Below the pieces are notes generated by a model that saw only the letters and a program-made list of their open reading frames with translations, had not been told where the DNA came from and ran no database searches. A DNA stretch of 64,000 bases, from the sequence record PQ341120.1; one strand, given 5' to 3'. This DNA is from Escherichia phage EAWsc9. The position numbers and the translations under genes are program-made. This document shows positions 8,363-15,568 of this stretch, piece by piece; the stretch's first letter is position 1, and every line of letters begins with the position of its first letter.

Positions 8363-9922
8363 ATGAAAAAGAATGCATTAGTTCAAAAATGGTCCGCTCT
8401 GCTGGAAAACGAAGCTCTTCCGGAAATCGTTGGTGCTTCTAAACAAGCTATCATCGCTAAAATCTTTGAAAACCAGGAACAAGATATTCTGACCGCTCCT
8501 GAATACCGTGACGAAAAAATCTCCGAAGCATTTGGTTCTTTCCTGACCGAAGCTGAAATCGGTGGTGACCATGGTTATGATGCTACCAATATCGCTGCTG
8601 GCCAGACCTCTGGTGCAGTAACTCAGATTGGGCCGGCAGTTATGGGTATGGTTCGTCGTGCTATCCCGCATCTGATTGCGTTTGATATTTGTGGCGTACA
8701 GCCTCTGAACAACCCGACTGGCCAGGTATTTGCCCTGCGTGCAGTTTACGGTAAAGACCCTGTAGCTGCTGGTGCTAAAGAAGCTTTCCACCCGATGTAT
8801 GCTCCAAATGCTATGTTCTCTGGTCAGGGCGCTGCTGAAGCTTTCGAAGCTCTGGCTGCAAGCAAAGTTCTTACCGTTGGTAAAATTTATTCTCACTTCT
8901 TCGAAGCAACCGGTGCCGCGCACTTCCAGGCTGTTGAAGCTGTAACCGTTGATGCTGCTGCTACTGATGCCGCTAAACTTGACGCCGAAGTTACCAAACT
9001 GCTCGAAGCTGGTAAGCTGGCCGAAATCGCTGAAGGTATGGCTACCTCTATCGCCGAATTGCAGGAAGGCTTCAACGGTTCTACTGATAACCCGTGGAAC
9101 GAAATGGGCTTCCGTATCGATAAACAAGTTATCGAAGCTAAATCCCGTCAGCTGAAAGCAAGTTACTCCATCGAACTGGCACAGGACCTGCGCGCTGTTC
9201 ATGGTATGGATGCTGATGCCGAATTGAGTGGTATTCTGGCTACCGAAATTATGCTGGAAATCAACCGCGAAGTTATCGATTGGATTAACTACTCCGCACA
9301 GGTTGGTAAATCTGGTATGACCAACACCGTTGGCGCTAAAGCTGGTGTGTTTGACTTCCAGGACCCGATTGATATCCGTGGCGCTCGTTGGGCTGGTGAA
9401 AGCTTCAAAGCTTTACTGTTCCAGATTGATAAAGAAGCCGCTGAAATCGCTCGTCAGACTGGCCGTGGTGCAGGTAACTTCATCATCGCTTCCCGTAACG
9501 TAGTTAACGTACTGGCTGCAGTTGATACCTCCGTATCTTATGCTGCTCAGGGTCTGGGTAAAGGTTTCAACGTTGACACCACTAAAGCTGTGTTCGCTGG
9601 TGTTCTGGGTGGCAAATACCGTGTATACATCGACCAGTATGCTCGTGCAGACTATTTCACCATCGGTTACAAAGGCGCTAACGAAATGGATGCTGGTATC
9701 TACTACGCACCATATGTTGCACTGACCCCGCTGCGTGGCTCTGACCCGAAAAACTTCCAGCCGGTTATGGGCTTCAAAACCCGTTACGGTATCGGTATTA
9801 ACCCGTTCGCTGACCCGGTAGCTCAGGCTCCGACTAAGCGCATTCAGAACGGCATGCCGGACATCGTTAACAGCCTCGGCTTGAACGGTTACTTCCGCCG
9901 CGTATATGTTAAAGGAATTTAA
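8363..9922 (+). CDS. 23: Major capsid protein, 519 aa
   Basis: Very high similarity to T4 gp23 (e.g. AIIAKIFENQE, GGDHGY.ATNIAAGQTSGAVTQIGPAVMGMVRRAIP); followed by a strong hairpin terminator. Confidence 0.98.
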   Translation: MKKNALVQKWSALLENEALPEIVGASKQAIIAKIFENQEQDILTAPEYRDEKISEAFGSFLTEAEIGGDHGYDATNIAAGQTSGAVTQIGPAVMGMVRRAIPHLIAFDICGVQPLNNPTGQVFALRAVYGKDPVAAGAKEAFHPMYAPNAMFSGQGAAEAFEALAASKVLTVGKIYSHFFEATGAAHFQAVEAVTVDAAATDAAKLDAEVTKLLEAGKLAEIAEGMATSIAELQEGFNGSTDNPWNEMGFRIDKQVIEAKSRQLKASYSIELAQDLRAVHGMDADAELSGILATEIMLEINREVIDWINYSAQVGKSGMTNTVGAKAGVFDFQDPIDIRGARWAGESFKALLFQIDKEAAEIARQTGRGAGNFIIASRNVVNVLAAVDTSVSYAAQGLGKGFNVDTTKAVFAGVLGGKYRVYIDQYARADYFTIGYKGANEMDAGIYYAPYVALTPLRGSDPKNFQPVMGFKTRYGIGINPFADPVAQAPTKRIQNGMPDIVNSLGLNGYFRRVYVKGI

Positions 9923-9945
9923 TCCTAGATTAAGTTAAATAAAAA

Positions 9946-9973
9946 GGGACCCTTGAGGTCCCTTTCTTGTTTT
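9946..9973. terminator. Bidirectional rho-independent terminator after gene 23
   Basis: GGGACC-CTTGA-GGTCCC followed by TTTCTTGTTTT; A/T runs on both sides. Confidence 0.75.
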
Positions 9974-10254
9974 CATACCATACCATTTAAATGAACTTCT
10001 ACCCGGCGCTTGATGAGGTCTCTGAAGTTAACATTGTTTTCTTGAAGTTTCAACCAGTTACCATTTTTATCTTTAGTGTGAGTAGAATAATTACCATTCC
10101 ACCAGAAATCAGTGTCATATGCTAAGTTTTCATATTTTTTAACTAGTTTGTTCAGAGCATTACCATTAACACCATTTGGGTATTTGTTGACCAATGCAAT
10201 AACTTCAATTTCCAATTTTTTAAAGGTGTTCAGAAGGAAAGTTGCTTTGTTCAT
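9973..10254 (-). CDS. Hypothetical protein, 93 aa, antisense-oriented between late genes 23 and 24
   Basis: Minus-strand ORF with GGAG RBS and its own early-type promoter; occupies the locus where T4 carries segD but has no GIY-YIG or HNH motif. Confidence 0.6.
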   Translation of the reverse strand: MNKATFLLNTFKKLEIEVIALVNKYPNGVNGNALNKLVKKYENLAYDTDFWWNGNYSTHTKDKNGNWLKLQENNVNFRDLIKRRVEVHLNGMV

Positions 10255-10293
10255 TTTTAAACTCCAGGTTTTGTTTGTTAACTCAGTATGAAA

Positions 10294-10324
10294 TCATTAT
10301 GTCTTATCTTAATCGGGTTGTAAA
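10294..10324 (-). promoter_or_regulatory. Early (sigma70-type) promoter for the 9973..10254 gene
   Basis: Minus strand reads GTTTACA, 17 nt, CATAAT, then GGAG RBS. Confidence 0.45.
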
Positions 10325-10331
10325 CAACTTT

Positions 10332-10339
10332 TATAAATA
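10332..10339 (+). promoter_or_regulatory. Late promoter TATAAATA for gene 24
   Basis: Exact motif about 27 nt upstream of the ATG. Confidence 0.6.
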
Positions 10340-10365
10340 AAGTATATCACAAAAGGAAAGCGCAA

Positions 10366-11646
10366 ATGGCAAAGATTAACAAATTACTGCGCGAGTCAAC
10401 TATTACTACCAGCAACTCCTTGGGCCGCCCGAATCTTGTTGCTTTGACCCGCGCTACGACTAAATTGATTTACCGCGATATCATCGCTGAACAACGTACT
10501 AACCAGCCTGTTGCTGCACTGTATGGTGTTAAATATCTTACTCCTGATAACGAATTCAGTTTCCAGACGGGCGCTACTTATGGAGGTGAAGTCGGTTCTA
10601 AAGACCGTACAACTATTCCAGAGTTAGCTACAGCCACTCAGCCTGTGGCTAAAGGCGAATATGTAAAATACCAAAATATCGTTTACAAAGCTCTGGTTGA
10701 TAATCCATTTGCATCGACCACAGAAACCGTGTTATCTGATGTTCTGCAAGAAGGTCTTATTGCATCGACTATTCGCCTTGTTCCTGATGCGGCACACACC
10801 GAGAAATTCGAAGCTGGTGATGTTGAAATTAGCAATGCTGTATTCCAGGTTAACAAATGGAATGCTCCGGTTAAAACACGTAAATTGAAAACTGCATTAA
10901 CTGTTGAACTTGCTCAGGATATGGAAGCAAATGGTTTTAACGCTCCTGCATTCTTGGAAGACCTGCTTGCCACTATTATGGCAGATGAAATTAACAAAGA
11001 TGTTCTTCAGTCTCTTATTACCGTTTCCAAGCGTTATAAAGTAACTGGCGTTTCTGACAATGGCACCATCGATTTAACATACGATGCAGCCCCAGAAGGT
11101 GCACGTAAACTGTACGAACTGGTTTGCGAAATGAACTCCGAAATTCAGAAAACTACATCTTATTCCGGTACCTTTGTTGTTGCCTCTAGCCGTGTTGCTG
11201 CTATGTTGGCCGGTTCTGGTTGGTTGAAACACAGGCCAGAAGACGAACAGTGGCTCCCCGAAACAGCGTACGGTTATTTGATTAATGGCCTCCCTGTATT
11301 CTGTGATGTTAACAGTCCATTGGATTATGTAACTGTTGGTGTTAAAGAAAATTACGGCGGAAACGAAGTCGTAGGCTCAATTTTCTATGCTCCTTATACC
11401 GAAGGCCTGGACTTGGATGATGAAGAGCACGTTGGTGCGTTTAAGGTCATTGTGGACCCAGACAGCTTGCAGCCATCTATCTCTCTGATGGTTCGTTACG
11501 CGCTTTCAGCTAACCCGTACACCGTTGCTAAAGACGATAAAGAAGCTCGTATTATCGATGCAACCAATATGGATTTAATGGCCGGTCAGAGCAATATGTC
11601 TTATCTGCTCGGTGTTAAACTTCCGCCAATCATTTATGAGGCGTAA
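10366..11646 (+). CDS. 24: Capsid vertex protein, 426 aa
   Basis: MAKIN.LLREST... matches the T4 gp24 N-terminus and length; TATAAATA at about 10332..10339. Confidence 0.95.
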   Translation: MAKINKLLRESTITTSNSLGRPNLVALTRATTKLIYRDIIAEQRTNQPVAALYGVKYLTPDNEFSFQTGATYGGEVGSKDRTTIPELATATQPVAKGEYVKYQNIVYKALVDNPFASTTETVLSDVLQEGLIASTIRLVPDAAHTEKFEAGDVEISNAVFQVNKWNAPVKTRKLKTALTVELAQDMEANGFNAPAFLEDLLATIMADEINKDVLQSLITVSKRYKVTGVSDNGTIDLTYDAAPEGARKLYELVCEMNSEIQKTTSYSGTFVVASSRVAAMLAGSGWLKHRPEDEQWLPETAYGYLINGLPVFCDVNSPLDYVTVGVKENYGGNEVVGSIFYAPYTEGLDLDDEEHVGAFKVIVDPDSLQPSISLMVRYALSANPYTVAKDDKEARIIDATNMDLMAGQSNMSYLLGVKLPPIIYEA

Positions 11647-12930
11647 ATGCAAAAGATTAATGCACTAATTCACGAATCAACATTAACGGCGGCCAACCAG
11701 GTCGCCCGTCCTAATTTGCTTTCTTATACCCAGGCTACGAATAAACGAATTTTTAAAGCACTCGTGGCCGAACAGAAAACTACCCAGCCTGTTGCAGCCC
11801 TGTATGGTGTTCGTGTTCTGAACCCAGATGATAAAATGACTTATCTCGGTGGAGCAACATTTGCAGGTCAGATTGGTATGTTCGAGCGTAAGAATATTCC
11901 AGAATTTACAAACAAAGACGAAGCTTATGCAGTCGGCGATATGTTCCAGTTTGAAAGTGTTGTGTTCAAAGTTTTGGAAGCATCCCCATTCGCCGGTACA
12001 CTCGAAACTGATTTAGGTGAAGTTATTTCTGAAGCCATTGCTGCTGGGCATATAAGAATGATGTCAGATGCTGCTTTCACTGATAAATTTGAAAAGGGGC
12101 ATCCTGAAATTGCTGAAGCTGGTTTTCGTATCGATAAATGGCAGACTGAAGTTAAATCCAGAAAGCTGAAAACTTCTTTAACTGTCGAGCTTGCACAAGA
12201 CCTGGAAGCAAACGGTTTCGATGCAACAGACTTCATCGATAATATTCTCGGTATTCAAATGGCAGAGGAAATTAATAAGGATGTATTACAATCCCTTATT
12301 ACTGTTAGTTCCCGCTTCAAGGTACAAGGTGTTTCGGAAAAAGGTGTATTGAATCTTACTGACCCGAAATATGATAATGCCCAGGACCGCGCACGAACCC
12401 TGTATTATTATATGTGTGAAATGAATTCTGCAGTTCAACGTCAGACTTCGTTTGCTGGTACATATGCAGTTGCTTCTTCCCGTTGTGCAGCTATTTTAGC
12501 CGCTTCTGGCTGGGTTGAGAAAAAGGAAGACCAGGATGAATTGGCCTATGGTGTTCTGAAGAACGGTTTGCCTCTTTACGCTGATATGAATAGTCCATGC
12601 GATTATGTTATTGTTGGTGTAAATGCAGATATGGGTGAAGGTCAGACGGTCGCATCTTTATATTATGCGCCTTATACGGAAGGACTTAGCGAAGTTGATG
12701 ATGAGGGGGATACCTCGGTTGGGGAATTCAAGGTTATTGTTGACCCTGAAAGTTTACAGCCTACGGTTGCACTGTTAGCTCGTTATGCTTTGACTGCGAA
12801 CCCGTACACCGTTGCTAAAGACGATAAAGAAGCCCGCATTATTGATGGTGCTGATATGGATAAGATGGCTAACCAAAGCCAATTGAGTTCTTATCTTGGT
12901 GTTAAACTTCCACCACTGGAAAAAGAATAA
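11647..12930 (+). CDS. Capsid vertex protein paralog (second gp24-like gene), 427 aa
   Basis: Shares conserved blocks with gene 24 (EINKDVLQSLITVS, ANPYTVAKDDKEARIID, SRKLKT.LTVELAQD); start immediately follows the gene 24 stop. Confidence 0.85.
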   Translation: MQKINALIHESTLTAANQVARPNLLSYTQATNKRIFKALVAEQKTTQPVAALYGVRVLNPDDKMTYLGGATFAGQIGMFERKNIPEFTNKDEAYAVGDMFQFESVVFKVLEASPFAGTLETDLGEVISEAIAAGHIRMMSDAAFTDKFEKGHPEIAEAGFRIDKWQTEVKSRKLKTSLTVELAQDLEANGFDATDFIDNILGIQMAEEINKDVLQSLITVSSRFKVQGVSEKGVLNLTDPKYDNAQDRARTLYYYMCEMNSAVQRQTSFAGTYAVASSRCAAILAASGWVEKKEDQDELAYGVLKNGLPLYADMNSPCDYVIVGVNADMGEGQTVASLYYAPYTEGLSEVDDEGDTSVGEFKVIVDPESLQPTVALLARYALTANPYTVAKDDKEARIIDGADMDKMANQSQLSSYLGVKLPPLEKE

Positions 12931-12956
12931 GGGCCGCAAGGCCCTTTTTTTATTCA
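12931..12956. terminator. Bidirectional terminator between the gp24 paralog and rnlB
   Basis: GGGCCGCAAGGCCC followed by TTTTTTTATT. Confidence 0.75.
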
Positions 12957-13957
12957 TTAATTAATGCAATCCAAACATGTCTTAATGTTTCTCTTACATT
13001 TGTAATAAGTTGCTTTTTAACTTCAACAGGATTTTCTGTCTGGGTCAATTCAAGGCCTTCACGACCAGCTTCTTCCAGAATATCTTGGACTGTTAGCCCC
13101 ATTACCTTCCCAAAATCCTTCGGCGATACTTCCCCAATTTTACTGATAACATTATTGATACGGTTAACGGTCACGTAATCAGTGAACTTCCATAAAATAT
13201 CCAGGTCTTCCTGGGACAACACAACAGCAGCCTTAATAGGCTTATCAGACTTTTTCTTTTCGCTGAATTTAGAATTCTTGCATTTAATCGCCACACGCTC
13301 GCCGTTAGGTAACCAGGCGGGAACATCAGGTTTTAATACAAATCCTTCAGCAGTGAATACTTTACCTTCCACCTTTGCATCAAAATCAGTGGTATTTGCT
13401 GTAGTCAAGCCTGCGTTATCCACTGTAAAATTGTAATCAGGAACAACAGAATCCAGGTCATTAGGGAGCTTAATCAAGTCTTCAAAGCTTCCGGTAGCCA
13501 GTCGCGGAGCAACCTTAAACTTATGGATAATACAGAATGCTTCCATCAAGGTGTCAGTCAGGACAGATTCAGTTCCATCTTCCTTAGTAACGCGGATATC
13601 AAACACATAGAAATCTTTATCGCCGTAATCCACATTCTTCTGGATACCTGTACCAGCAAACTCACCATAAATCTGGTAAGCCTGGTAATTAATATCCTGT
13701 AAAAGTTTCTGCACAGATTTAATAGAATCTGCGTAGTTCTTTAATACAATTTCATAACCATAGAAATCTTCTGCAGGTAGAATAGGTCCAGTGCGTTTCG
13801 CGCATGTCACATTGTCTTGTTCAATGATTAATGAAAAGTTGGTACCATGAATCTTTTCACGAGCTACCCATTCACCGCTGGTGAAGCCTTGCAGGCGAAT
13901 CTTTTCAATGAACTTGTTATTATAGTGATTTTCAAGGCTGTTGTATTTCTTAAACAT
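12950..13957 (-). CDS. rnlB: RNA ligase 2, 335 aa
   Basis: MFKKY.SLENHYN.KFIEK...[13 protein letters not shown] (lysine nucleotidyltransferase motif KxHG) as in T4 Rnl2. Confidence 0.95.
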
Positions 13958-14040
13958 AATCTCTCACTTTTGATGTTATAAATATCATTATAAATTAGAC
14001 CCGCTATACTTTCTTTCTCTGAAAGGAATTAATAGTCACA

Positions 14041-14719: not shown

Positions 14720-15568
14720 TTAATAAACGTAATCGTATATAATACCAGTTTCTAAAGCGGTGCGATGAATAACTCGACCATTACGAGATTCTTGTACATC
14801 AACCTCTGGATAGTCGGTAATCATTTTTTGAAGTGTGTATCGGTGCAAATAATACGGGCTATCTGGGTCATCAGTTTTCCAGTCTTGTCCGGCAAGAGTC
14901 ATTTTCTGAATTTCATCCATAACCCACCAACCACACCAGATATAAGCTGAATTACGTACTGGCAATGGATGAACGTAAGGTAATTCGCCGTCTGGAACAG
15001 GTGCGACTTTAGCCGTAACTGTTACATTACCAGTTTTGGTAACGGTTACAGGGTTATAATCTGTAGCAGATACAACAACAGAAACTTCAATTAACTGGGA
15101 ACCTTCGGCGCTTGTATCGATTGCTAAAGTATCCATGGTGCCAACTACAGGAGAACCGTCTTTCTTCCAAGAATAGGCAAAAGTAGCACCAGCAGGCGCA
15201 CCGGCTACAGTAGCTTTAAAAGAAGCCGGAGTATCTTCCGGAACATTAATTGATTCTGGGGTTAATGTCACAGAAACACCAGACATAGTTTTATTCTGGA
15301 TAGTTAAAGTTGTCTCAGCCTCAGCAGTTTCCGGTTCACCGTCTGCCGGAGTGGTAGTTGCAACAACTTTAATAGTCTTACTGCCTGCTGGGCCAACAGC
15401 GACATAATCCATTGCTGCAGTCACAGAAGATTGAGGAACGCCATCAACGGTCCATACAAATGATTCAACACCTTCAGCTGCAGCACCAGAGCCGGTTGCA
15501 GTGAAATTGGTTGTTGCTCCAATAACGGCCGTAGCCGCCAAAGGAGCAATAGCTACGGTATAAGCCAT
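14720..15568 (-). CDS. hoc: Highly immunogenic outer capsid protein Hoc, 282 aa
   Basis: Ig-like domains and conserved C-terminal capsid-binding region (LPYVHPLP...YIWCGWWVMDEIQKMT) as in T4 Hoc; about one Ig domain shorter than T4 Hoc. Confidence 0.9.
   Translation of the reverse strand: MAYTVAIAPLAATAVIGATTNFTATGSGAAAEGVESFVWTVDGVPQSSVTAAMDYVAVGPAGSKTIKVVATTTPADGEPETAEAETTLTIQNKTMSGVSVTLTPESINVPEDTPASFKATVAGAPAGATFAYSWKKDGSPVVGTMDTLAIDTSAEGSQLIEVSVVVSATDYNPVTVTKTGNVTVTAKVAPVPDGELPYVHPLPVRNSAYIWCGWWVMDEIQKMTLAGQDWKTDDPDSPYYLHRYTLQKMITDYPEVDVQESRNGRVIHRTALETGIIYDYVY

Follow-up and report, generated by a model that had tools for sequence, protein, structure and literature searches.

In T4, the model phage for how prolate capsids assemble, one protein makes up all 11 vertices. 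As the original prediction had stated, T4 carries a single gene 24; it lies between segD and rnlB. The older split between gp23 and gp24 followed the same logic that we consider here: an HK97-fold shell protein was duplicated and the copies became specialized for different lattice positions (PMC9958956). For gp23 and gp24 the outcome (hexamer vs. pentamer subunits) is functionally established, whereas the division of labor between two gp24 copies that we describe below is a proposal only.

Some relatives of T4 carry gene 24 twice. The tandem gp24 pair is already known and, as a genome feature, is nothing new: two gp24-like genes occur in about 120 of 1,417 T4-like records (~8%), and the pair, which we confirmed directly in five genera, typifies Gaprivervirus, Dhakavirus, and Gelderlandvirus as well as some Marfavirus and Roskildevirus phages. 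The second copy is named “24b” in JS98 (EF469154) and IME08 and “24(2)” in VR7; elsewhere the products are called “capsid vertex protein I/II” (VR5/VR20/VR25/VR26 and CJ20) or “head vertex protein I/II” (CGG4-1). Annotation of the pair dates back to the JS98 record. The novelty originally attached to a second vertex-protein gene has thus not survived, since copy 2 is widely annotated in relatives as a known gene. The literature is far quieter than the annotation. The genome announcement for Melville (PMC6486254) speaks of a “tandem gene duplication” in that phage and in S16, and this was the sole explicit statement of the duplication that a full-text search recovered. The full texts searched yielded no report of copy 2 function and no virion proteomics, genetics, or structure that would place copy 2, or both copies, in the mature capsid, and two vertex proteins go unmentioned in the papers on F48, CkP1, ValerieMcCarty, and the Yersinia Gaprivervirus. 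A search of the PDB returned T4 gp24 only and no solved structure from a two-gp24 phage.

The window analyzed here is a stretch of 64,000 nucleotides from Escherichia phage EAWsc9 (PQ341120.1), a T4-like coliphage of the genus Gaprivervirus, and is ~98% identical to Gaprivervirus phages; the 3.1-kb segment with the pair is 98.6% identical to phage ECML-359. Two complete gp24-like ORFs lie head to tail on the plus strand without a spacer, as predicted, and coordinates and lengths agree. Gene 24 copy 1 (10366..11646, 426 aa) corresponds to VR7 24(1), or “capsid vertex protein I,” and is the more T4-like copy; gene 24 copy 2 (11647..12930, 427 aa) is a diverged paralogue that corresponds to JS98 24b, VR7 24(2), or “capsid vertex protein II.” The TAA of copy 1 (11644-11646) directly abuts the ATG of copy 2 (11647). 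Copy 1 is 97% identical to VR7 24(1), and copy 2 is 99, 90, 84, 80, and 70% identical to the second copies of VR7, Bp7, CF-SP2, F48, and FBB1, respectively. In all five genera examined, gene 23 and rnlB flank the pair and copy 2 follows copy 1 without a spacer; the two genes abut in Gaprivervirus and overlap by 1 nt in Bp7, CF-SP2, and FBB1 and by 4 nt in F48. Compared with the pairs of JS98/IME08, VR7, VR5/VR20/VR25/VR26, CJ20, CGG4-1, S16, and Melville, which have the same genes, order, junction, and flanks, the window shows allelic differences only, such as two synonymous sites that give this isolate its 35-nt run of identity between the copies.

Both proteins belong to the gp24 family (PF07068/PHROG 138), with full-length homology to T4 gp24 and a closer relationship to gp24 than to gp23. 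They match Pfam PF07068 (Gp23 family) at 329 bits (copy 1) and 328 bits (copy 2), against a cutoff of 24.4 bits, and each aligns end to end with the T4 gp24 structure 1YUE (residues 1-424; E=2.8e-193 for copy 1 and 2.3e-148 for copy 2), whereas matches of both to gp23 chains are far weaker (E ~1e-11 to 1e-12 over ~240 residues); copy 1 is 28% identical to this window's own gp23 over 249 residues. Identity to T4 gp24 is 69% for copy 1 and 56% for copy 2, so that the fold of both is not in doubt. The T4 gp24 N-terminus had been recognized on copy 1, and it is indeed there (MAKINKLLREST... compared with MAKINELLREST... in T4). The estimate that the copies are roughly half identical was also sound: BLASTP gives 55% identity and 75% positives over the full length (E=4e-173), and nucleotide identity is 62%. 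This is a real tandem pair of capsid vertex (gp24) paralogues, with copy 1 the closer to T4, and its homology and layout cannot be due to chance. We rejected the reading in which the usual gene 24 is the second ORF and the first encodes another protein: both products are homologous to gp24, and it is copy 1 that resembles T4 more closely. Even so, the copy 1 proteins of pair-bearing phages (~69% identical to T4 gp24) are more distant from T4 than are the single gp24s of Mosigvirus, Moonvirus, and Karamvirus (80-95%).

The neighborhood is that of the T4 head cluster. The pair lies 3' of gene 23 and convergent with rnlB: gp21, gp22, and gp23 are encoded upstream, and rnlB, 24.2, 24.3, hoc, and inh follow downstream on the other strand, in the same order as in T4 (synteny: g23, small ORF, 24.1, 24.2, then convergent rnlB, 24.2, 24.3, hoc, inh). 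Likeness to the T4 gp24 system (PDB 1YUE, 5VF3, 7VS5) extends from this position between gene 23 and rnlB to the late-promoter motif, the motif of the 10-residue propeptide, and the family-wide conserved blocks. The two differ in gene number and in what precedes gene 24: in T4 a single gene is preceded by the homing endonuclease segD, and in the window a pair is preceded by a 93-aa ORF (PHROG 6003) at the place of segD.

The expression signals around the pair were called as consensus matches only, and they outline a single candidate transcription unit. Its upstream limit is a terminator-like hairpin (9943..9965, plus strand; 9-bp stem, 5 G-C pairs, T-rich tail) directly 3' of the gp23 stop at 9922. 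A match to the T4-type late promoter consensus, TATAAATA, lies on the plus strand at 10332..10339, 27 nt upstream of the copy 1 ATG; this motif occurs 19 times in the window against an expected 4.6. No further TATAAATA is found from 10340 to 13976, hence none between the copies, and the motif at 10332-10339 is the only one in or beside the pair. A Shine-Dalgarno-like GAGG for copy 2 (11638..11641, plus strand) lies inside the 3' end of the copy 1 coding sequence and is separated from the ATG by 5 nt. At the far end, a G+C-rich hairpin with T runs (12929..12946; 7-bp stem, 5 G-C pairs) is found on both strands and is likely a bidirectional terminator, common to the end of copy 2 and the convergent rnlB. 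A single late promoter would then drive both genes, copy 2 would be translated from its own Shine-Dalgarno sequence in tight coupling to copy 1, and one terminator would close the unit. Codon bias is weaker in copy 2 (ENC 47.6 vs. 42.5 for copy 1), so copy 2 may be the less abundant product; the differences are small and not decisive, and we set codon bias aside as an indicator of stoichiometry.

Both products also carry a plausible maturation site. The prohead protease gp21 cuts a 10-residue N-terminal peptide off T4 gp24 (PMC9958956), and the mature T4 gp24 chains in the PDB begin at residue 11. Residues 7-10 of copy 1 are LLRE, followed by ST, which matches the T4 gp24 maturation site; in copy 2 they are LIHE, again followed by ST, so that E10-S11-T12 is present in both. 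A gp21 site of the form (L/I)-x-E|S-T therefore appears to be kept in both proteins, with processing predicted from the motif, and both copies probably enter the prohead and are processed. Taken together, promoter, coupled junction, terminator, and protease motif suggest that the two copies are co-expressed, processed capsid subunits.

How long the copies have been separate can be judged from their divergence and phylogeny. Synonymous divergence between copy 1 and copy 2 is saturated (dS = 1.58). In a neighbor-joining tree, all sampled second copies (window, VR7, Bp7, CF-SP2, F48, and FBB1) form one clade with 100% bootstrap that excludes the first copies and the single gp24s, and the branching order within it mirrors that of the first copies; a tblastn search with the FBB1 second copy retrieved JS98 “24b,” IME08 “24b,” VR7 “24(2),” and S16 at 69-73% identity. 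By these measures the duplication is old. Twelve sites are fixed and different between the copy 2 clade and all other gp24s, 7 of the 12 within T4 residues 25-68; in T4 numbering they are 25, 32, 34, 36, 56, 57, 68, 244, 261, 267, 335, and 415. Purifying selection on either copy matches in strength that on the single gp24 of T4: dN/dS against orthologues is 0.04-0.13 for copy 1 and 0.03-0.07 for copy 2, compared with 0.036 for the single gp24 of T4 vs. JS09, and dN is nearly equal for the two copies over the same phage pairs. Copy 2 is conserved at least as well as copy 1, with 246 invariant columns in six copy 2 sequences vs. 226 in six copy 1 sequences.

On comparison of these genomes, the pair also behaves as a cassette that can be exchanged. 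F48 and AmPh_EK29 belong to one Marfavirus species, and where F48 has the pair, AmPh_EK29 has segD and one divergent gene 24; nucleotide identity between the two phages is 98% in gp23 and 90% on the rnlB side, and it is the gene 24 segment that was swapped. The gp24 that AmPh_EK29 carries arrived together with segD and is not a leftover copy 1 but another allele (69% identical). In a gp23 tree the pair-bearing phages are not monophyletic, while their copy 1 sequences are, except for FBB1. The placement of the copy 2 clade is weak at depth (bootstraps of 4-22%), as are the deep nodes of the gp23 tree, which was meant to date the duplication; an ancient duplication with losses and a cassette spread by recombination are thus not cleanly separable.

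A very different origin for the pair would be a recent in-situ duplication in which gene conversion between the copies has kept them similar in part. The original prediction had pointed to two near-identical blocks; both are in fact identical in the two copies, ANPYTVAKDDKEARIID (nt 11509-11559 in copy 1, 12796-12846 in copy 2) and EINKDVLQSLITVS (nt 10987-11028 and 12268-12309), all on the plus strand. Another phage, CF-SP2, has a significant tract in the EINKDVLQSLITVS block (p=0.001), and in the window a 35-nt exact nucleotide match falls within the first of the two blocks, the ANPYTVAKDDKEA or ANPYTV block (plus strand, 11512..11546 of copy 1 = 12799..12833 of copy 2), where copy 2 has CCG TAC, like copy 1 and unlike all other second copies examined, a sharing that a conversion patch of ≤35 nt could produce. 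Against such an origin stand the low overall identity of the copies and their saturated dS, the strongly supported copy 2 clade across five genera, and conservation of the ANPYTV block at the protein level in T4 and all other gp24s examined. We tested for gene conversion by per-window identity, by shared polymorphism in seven Gapriverviruses, and by a Sawyer-type permutation: of 61 columns polymorphic in both copies in the seven Gapriverviruses, only 2 showed the same pattern in both, and the longest run over 212 silent polymorphic sites in the window was 9 (p=0.14, not significant). Conversion in this window was rejected after all three tests. Of the two causes that had been offered for the conserved block, constraint or gene conversion, constraint at the amino-acid level, possibly with shared codon choice, suffices and conversion leaves no significant signal; both blocks are conserved in every gp24 examined, T4 included, and are not specific to the pair. 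As the main explanation, recent duplication plus gene conversion is refuted by these comparisons, and we consider it extremely improbable for the pair.

Two other accounts accept the age of the pair and differ over what copy 2 does. Copy 2 might be a redundant or decaying spare that the capsid does not need: one gp24 is enough for T4 and most T-even genera, point mutations in gp23 can bypass gp24 (PMC9958956), a Marfavirus of F48's own species has one copy only, and the codon bias of copy 2 is slightly weaker. This is hard to reconcile with a copy 2 ORF that is intact in all pair-bearing genomes examined, has a dN/dS as low as that of the essential single gp24 and more invariant columns than copy 1, and has kept its protease motif and tight junction across five genera; nor is the lone gp24 of AmPh_EK29 a remnant copy 1. 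A dispensable spare therefore seems very unlikely. Somewhat less unlikely, though still improbable, is that copy 2 is an accessory and not a lattice subunit, i.e., a vertex decoration or shield, a prohead-only assembly factor, or an immune decoy. The least conserved stretch of both copies, T4 residues 78-137, is what we take from general knowledge to be the surface-exposed insertion domain of the gp24 fold, and variation there would suit such a role. For type IV Thoeris to act against T6, a capsid vertex protein must trigger it, and one substitution, A380V, is enough for escape (PMC13243611), which places vertex proteins under immune pressure. Yet supplying wild-type T6 vertex protein restores immunity against the escape mutant (PMC13243611), so that a sensed copy would be dominant and could not be masked by adding another; moreover, the residue that aligns with T4 position 380 is still alanine in both copies of the window. 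Copy 2 also has the length of gp24, aligns with it end to end without an added domain, and retains at its N-terminus the cleavage motif that prohead shell proteins typically carry, and the earlier suggestion of a “decoration or receptor-shielding variant” finds no support in this architecture.

We therefore favor the view of both copies as vertex subunits, and its parts deserve different degrees of confidence. That the locus is a two-gene late operon for two anciently diverged T4 gp24 vertex paralogues, the known 24(1)/24(2) pair, is probable. More tentative, and to be taken as one possibility, is that the copies are co-adapted, non-interchangeable penton subunits, found on different vertex classes or in mixed pentamers of fixed composition, with the pair moving as a cassette. 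Under this proposal the two proteins would be non-redundant and would divide the 11 vertices other than the portal between them. Each might form homopentamers at vertices of its own (for example, one at the apical vertex and the other at the two rings of five in the prolate head), or the two might mix within pentamers. The two-gene cassette would move among T-even genera by recombining through its conserved flanks, gene 23 and rnlB.

Gaprivervirus, Dhakavirus, and Gelderlandvirus/S16 form a large and therapeutically relevant set of phages that carry two diverged vertex proteins under strong selection. The value of the pair is that it points to a structural question, namely how two vertex proteins share 11 vertices. 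If the reading as specialized pentons is true, this would be, to our knowledge, the first tailed-phage capsid shown to have two specialized vertex proteins. If the copies mark different vertices, their assignment could inform how the axis and length of the prolate head are defined, and it could also inform how capsid proteins evolve under immune sensing.

The two gp24 (capsid vertex protein) genes of EAWsc9 are complete plus-strand ORFs, copy 1 at 10366–11646 (426 aa) and copy 2 at 11647–12930 (427 aa), with the ATG of copy 2 directly abutting the TAA stop of copy 1. Their proteins align over their full length (55% identity, 75% positives, E = 4e-173), both match Pfam PF07068 (~328 bits, cutoff 24.4) and PHROG 138, and both align end to end with the crystal structure of T4 gp24, 1YUE (copy 1, E = 2.8e-193; copy 2, E = 2.3e-148). 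Gp24 is far nearer to both copies than is the major capsid protein gp23 of the window (gene at 8363–9922); that gp23 and copy 1 are 28% identical across a stretch of 249 residues. Identity to T4 gp24 is 69% for copy 1 and 56% for copy 2, the latter being slightly nearer to Jiaodavirus JD18, whose single gp24 it matches at 64%. The original prediction of a spacerless head-to-tail gp24 pair, with near-identical blocks surviving in diverged copies (both blocks are identical between copy 1 and copy 2), is real, correctly described and biologically meaningful.

The pair was known before, and is widely annotated across this phage group. Its 3.1-kb segment matches Escherichia phage ECML-359 at 98.6% identity, other Gaprivervirus (TH40, vB_YenM_P8, UPEC07, VR7, VR20, VR25, VR26) at 92–98% and the Dhakavirus phages Bp7, QL01, WG01 and IME341 at ~81%. 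The genes are named 24(1) and 24(2) in VR7 (HM563683), “capsid vertex protein I” and “capsid vertex protein II” in VR20, VR25, VR26 and CJ20, and “head vertex protein I/II” in CGG4-1; the second copy is “24b” in JS98 (EF469154) and IME08. For S16 and Melville, the Melville genome announcement (PMC6486254) speaks of a “tandem gene duplication.” Searches by tblastn with either copy matched ~1,417 T4-like records, and the matching places exceed the records by ~118–123, so that ~120 records (~8%) hold two gp24-like genes; the second copy is broadly present in annotated relatives as a known gene. The tandem arrangement was verified directly in members of five genera, namely Gaprivervirus, Dhakavirus (Bp7), Gelderlandvirus (Salmonella phage CF-SP2), Marfavirus (Klebsiella phage vB_Kpn_F48, here F48) and Roskildevirus (Erwinia phage FBB1), while Gelderlandvirus S16 and Melville were counted as pair-bearing by annotation. 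T4, by contrast, has a single gene 24 preceded by segD.

Where T4 and Klebsiella phage AmPh_EK29 have segD, the window has a 93-aa minus-strand ORF (9973–10254, between gene 23 and copy 1), a member of PHROG 6003 (no assigned function) with no Pfam match. VR7 ORF190c (noted in its record as similar to JS98 ORF173c) and an ORF of Bp7 equal it in size, strand and position; in Mosigvirus JS09, too, a small reverse-strand ORF lies there, similar in size and position. Beyond the pair, the window's Hoc-like head decoration gene (282 aa, 14720–15568, minus strand) follows 24.3 (end 14551) directly, with no plus-strand ORF of at least 60 aa between them. In VR7 (8775–11049 of its locus, L001) two extra plus-strand ORFs lie between 24.3 and hoc, encoding a collagen-triple-helix-repeat protein and a second Hoc-like protein, a difference suggesting that the decoration-gene region is variable within Gaprivervirus.

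Sequence signals point to a bicistronic late operon in which translation of the two genes is coupled. A T4-type late promoter motif, TATAAATA, lies at 10332–10339, 27 nt ahead of copy 1, and is the only such motif near the pair; a GAGG stands 5 nt before the copy-2 ATG, inside the end of copy 1; and terminator-like hairpins follow gene 23 (9943–9965) and copy 2 (12929–12946, on both strands). The junction lacks a spacer in all five genera: the genes either abut or overlap, in the latter case by 1 or 4 nt. The motif occurs 19 times in the whole window versus 4.6 expected from shuffles (e.g., at 1330, 1829, 3225, 3903, 3990, 4543, 6534, 7486, 8215, 10332, 13977 and 16262), its plus-strand copies clustering ahead of the head genes, within 17 kb of the window's start. 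Codon bias is somewhat weaker in copy 2 (ENC 47.6 vs 42.5 in copy 1), a difference too small to set stoichiometry. In T4, the prohead protease gp21 strips a 10-residue N-terminal peptide from gp24 (PMC9958956), and residue 11 is the first residue of the mature gp24 chains deposited in the PDB. Both window proteins carry (L/I)-x-E at residues 8–10, then S-T, which fits both being processed prohead shell components.

In a neighbour-joining tree of 21 gp24 proteins (200 bootstraps), one clade holds all second copies (100%), and the first copies of Gaprivervirus, Dhakavirus, Gelderlandvirus and Marfavirus form a separate clade (100%) within the canonical gp24 group; bootstraps for the deep placement of the copy-2 clade are just 4–22%. 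Branching order is the same in both clades (FBB1, F48, CF-SP2, Bp7, then VR7 with the window), so the genes were inherited together.

The pair also appears to be exchangeable as a unit between otherwise different genomes. F48 and AmPh_EK29, both assigned to one species (Marfavirus F48), share 97.9% nucleotide identity in their gp23 genes and 90% on the side of rnlB, the convergent gene downstream. Between these flanks F48 has the gp24 pair (1682–4842 of L004, its locus) and AmPh_EK29 has segD and one gene 24 (2255–4317 of L008), the latter 71–74% identical in nucleotides and 69% in protein to F48 copy 1; this suggests homing-endonuclease-associated allelic replacement. The AmPh_EK29 gene 24 product is also just 69% identical to T4 gp24, and the F48 segment additionally carries a small DprA-like ORF. 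In a gp23 tree built from the C-terminal 280 residues, pair-bearing phages are interspersed among single-copy phages (CF-SP2 with Moonvirus KM16, 79%; F48 with EK29, 100%), and the copy 1 proteins of pair-bearing phages, FBB1 aside, form an exclusive clade (100%); we claim no number of losses or transfers because deep nodes are weak. In Yersinia phage vB_YenM_TG1 and Acinetobacter phage Meroveus the next upstream neighbour of gene 24 is a large reverse-strand ORF instead of gene 23 (encoding a hypothetical protein in TG1 and, in Meroveus, a putative nuclease/acetyltransferase), arrangements suggesting that the g23–g24 junction is an insertion hot spot across T4-like phages.

We consider it quite probable that both copies are functional, co-expressed, processed capsid shell proteins, an old and known paralogue pair. 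A recent duplicate kept similar by conversion seems extremely unlikely: dS between the window copies is saturated (1.58), and the conserved blocks, ANPYTVAKD(D/E)KEARIID and EINKD(V/I)LQSLITVS, are kept in T4 and essentially all Tevenvirinae gp24s, which on these alignments makes them family motifs, not a likeness specially kept between the window copies. Nucleotide identity of the ANPYTV block between copies is 92% in the window and VR7, 81% in Bp7, CF-SP2 and F48, and 71% in FBB1. An exact 35-nt match (11512–11546 in copy 1, 12799–12833 in copy 2) exists because window copy 2 coincides with copy 1 in CCG TAC, where all other copy 2 sequences have CCT TAT, CCC TAC, CCT TAC or CCA TAC. A Sawyer-type permutation gave no significant signal of gene conversion in the window (p = 0.14, 212 silent polymorphic sites) and p = 0.04–0.08, uncorrected, for VR25 and VR7; among seven Gapriverviruses, both copies show the same pattern at just 2 of the 61 columns polymorphic in both. 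As to the proposed “constraint or gene conversion,” amino-acid constraint suffices to account for the window's blocks, shared codon preference may add to it, and a conversion patch of up to 35 nt is not supported. CF-SP2 differs from the window: its copies are nucleotide-identical across a different tract, the EINKDVLQSLITVS block (alignment codons 208–220, 16 concordant silent polymorphic sites in one run, p = 0.001), which looks like a short gene-conversion tract between paralogues.

That copy 2 is a redundant spare is very unlikely. Against orthologues, dN/dS is 0.04–0.13 for copy 1 and 0.03–0.07 for copy 2 (T4 vs JS09 gp24, 0.036); dN is near-equal for both copies over the same phage pairs (window–Bp7, 0.081 vs 0.074); and six copy-2 sequences have 246 invariant columns versus 226 in six copy-1 sequences, so that copy 2 is neither decaying nor fast-evolving. 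At twelve positions all six copy-2 sequences share one residue, unlike the one that at least 12 of the 13 other gp24s have in common (V25L, T32N, L34R, Y36F, K56R, Y57V, T68G, P244Q, I261V, Y267F, E335Q, L415Y). Seven of them fall within residues 25–68, presumably the N-arm/E-loop region; in the HK97 fold this N-terminal stretch contacts other subunits and capsomers, a hint that copy 2 may have a conserved interface of its own. The most variable stretch of both clades is T4 residues 78–137 (identity 0.36–0.74 within clades, 0.29–0.45 between paralogues), which we take, from general knowledge of the fold, to be the gp24 surface insertion domain.

An accessory, shield or decoy role for copy 2 is improbable, and the proposed decoration or receptor-shielding variant found no support. 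A decoy would be in keeping with type IV Thoeris, whose triggering against T6 needs the capsid vertex protein and is escaped by A380V, but immunity against the escape mutant returned once wild-type protein was supplied (PMC13243611). A sensed copy would therefore be dominant. In T4 gp24 the alanine within RY-A-LSANPYTV is residue 380, three positions ahead of the ANPYTV block, and both window copies have alanine there (Y-A-L at 11500–11508 and 12787–12795). T6 residue 380 is this alanine if, as we assume, T6 numbering equals that of T4.

As two functional shell proteins, the pair would share the role that T4 gp24 fills at the 11 non-portal vertices. The searchable literature yielded no virion proteomics, genetics or structure for any two-gp24 phage, and the only gp24 structures in the PDB copy searched are those of T4.
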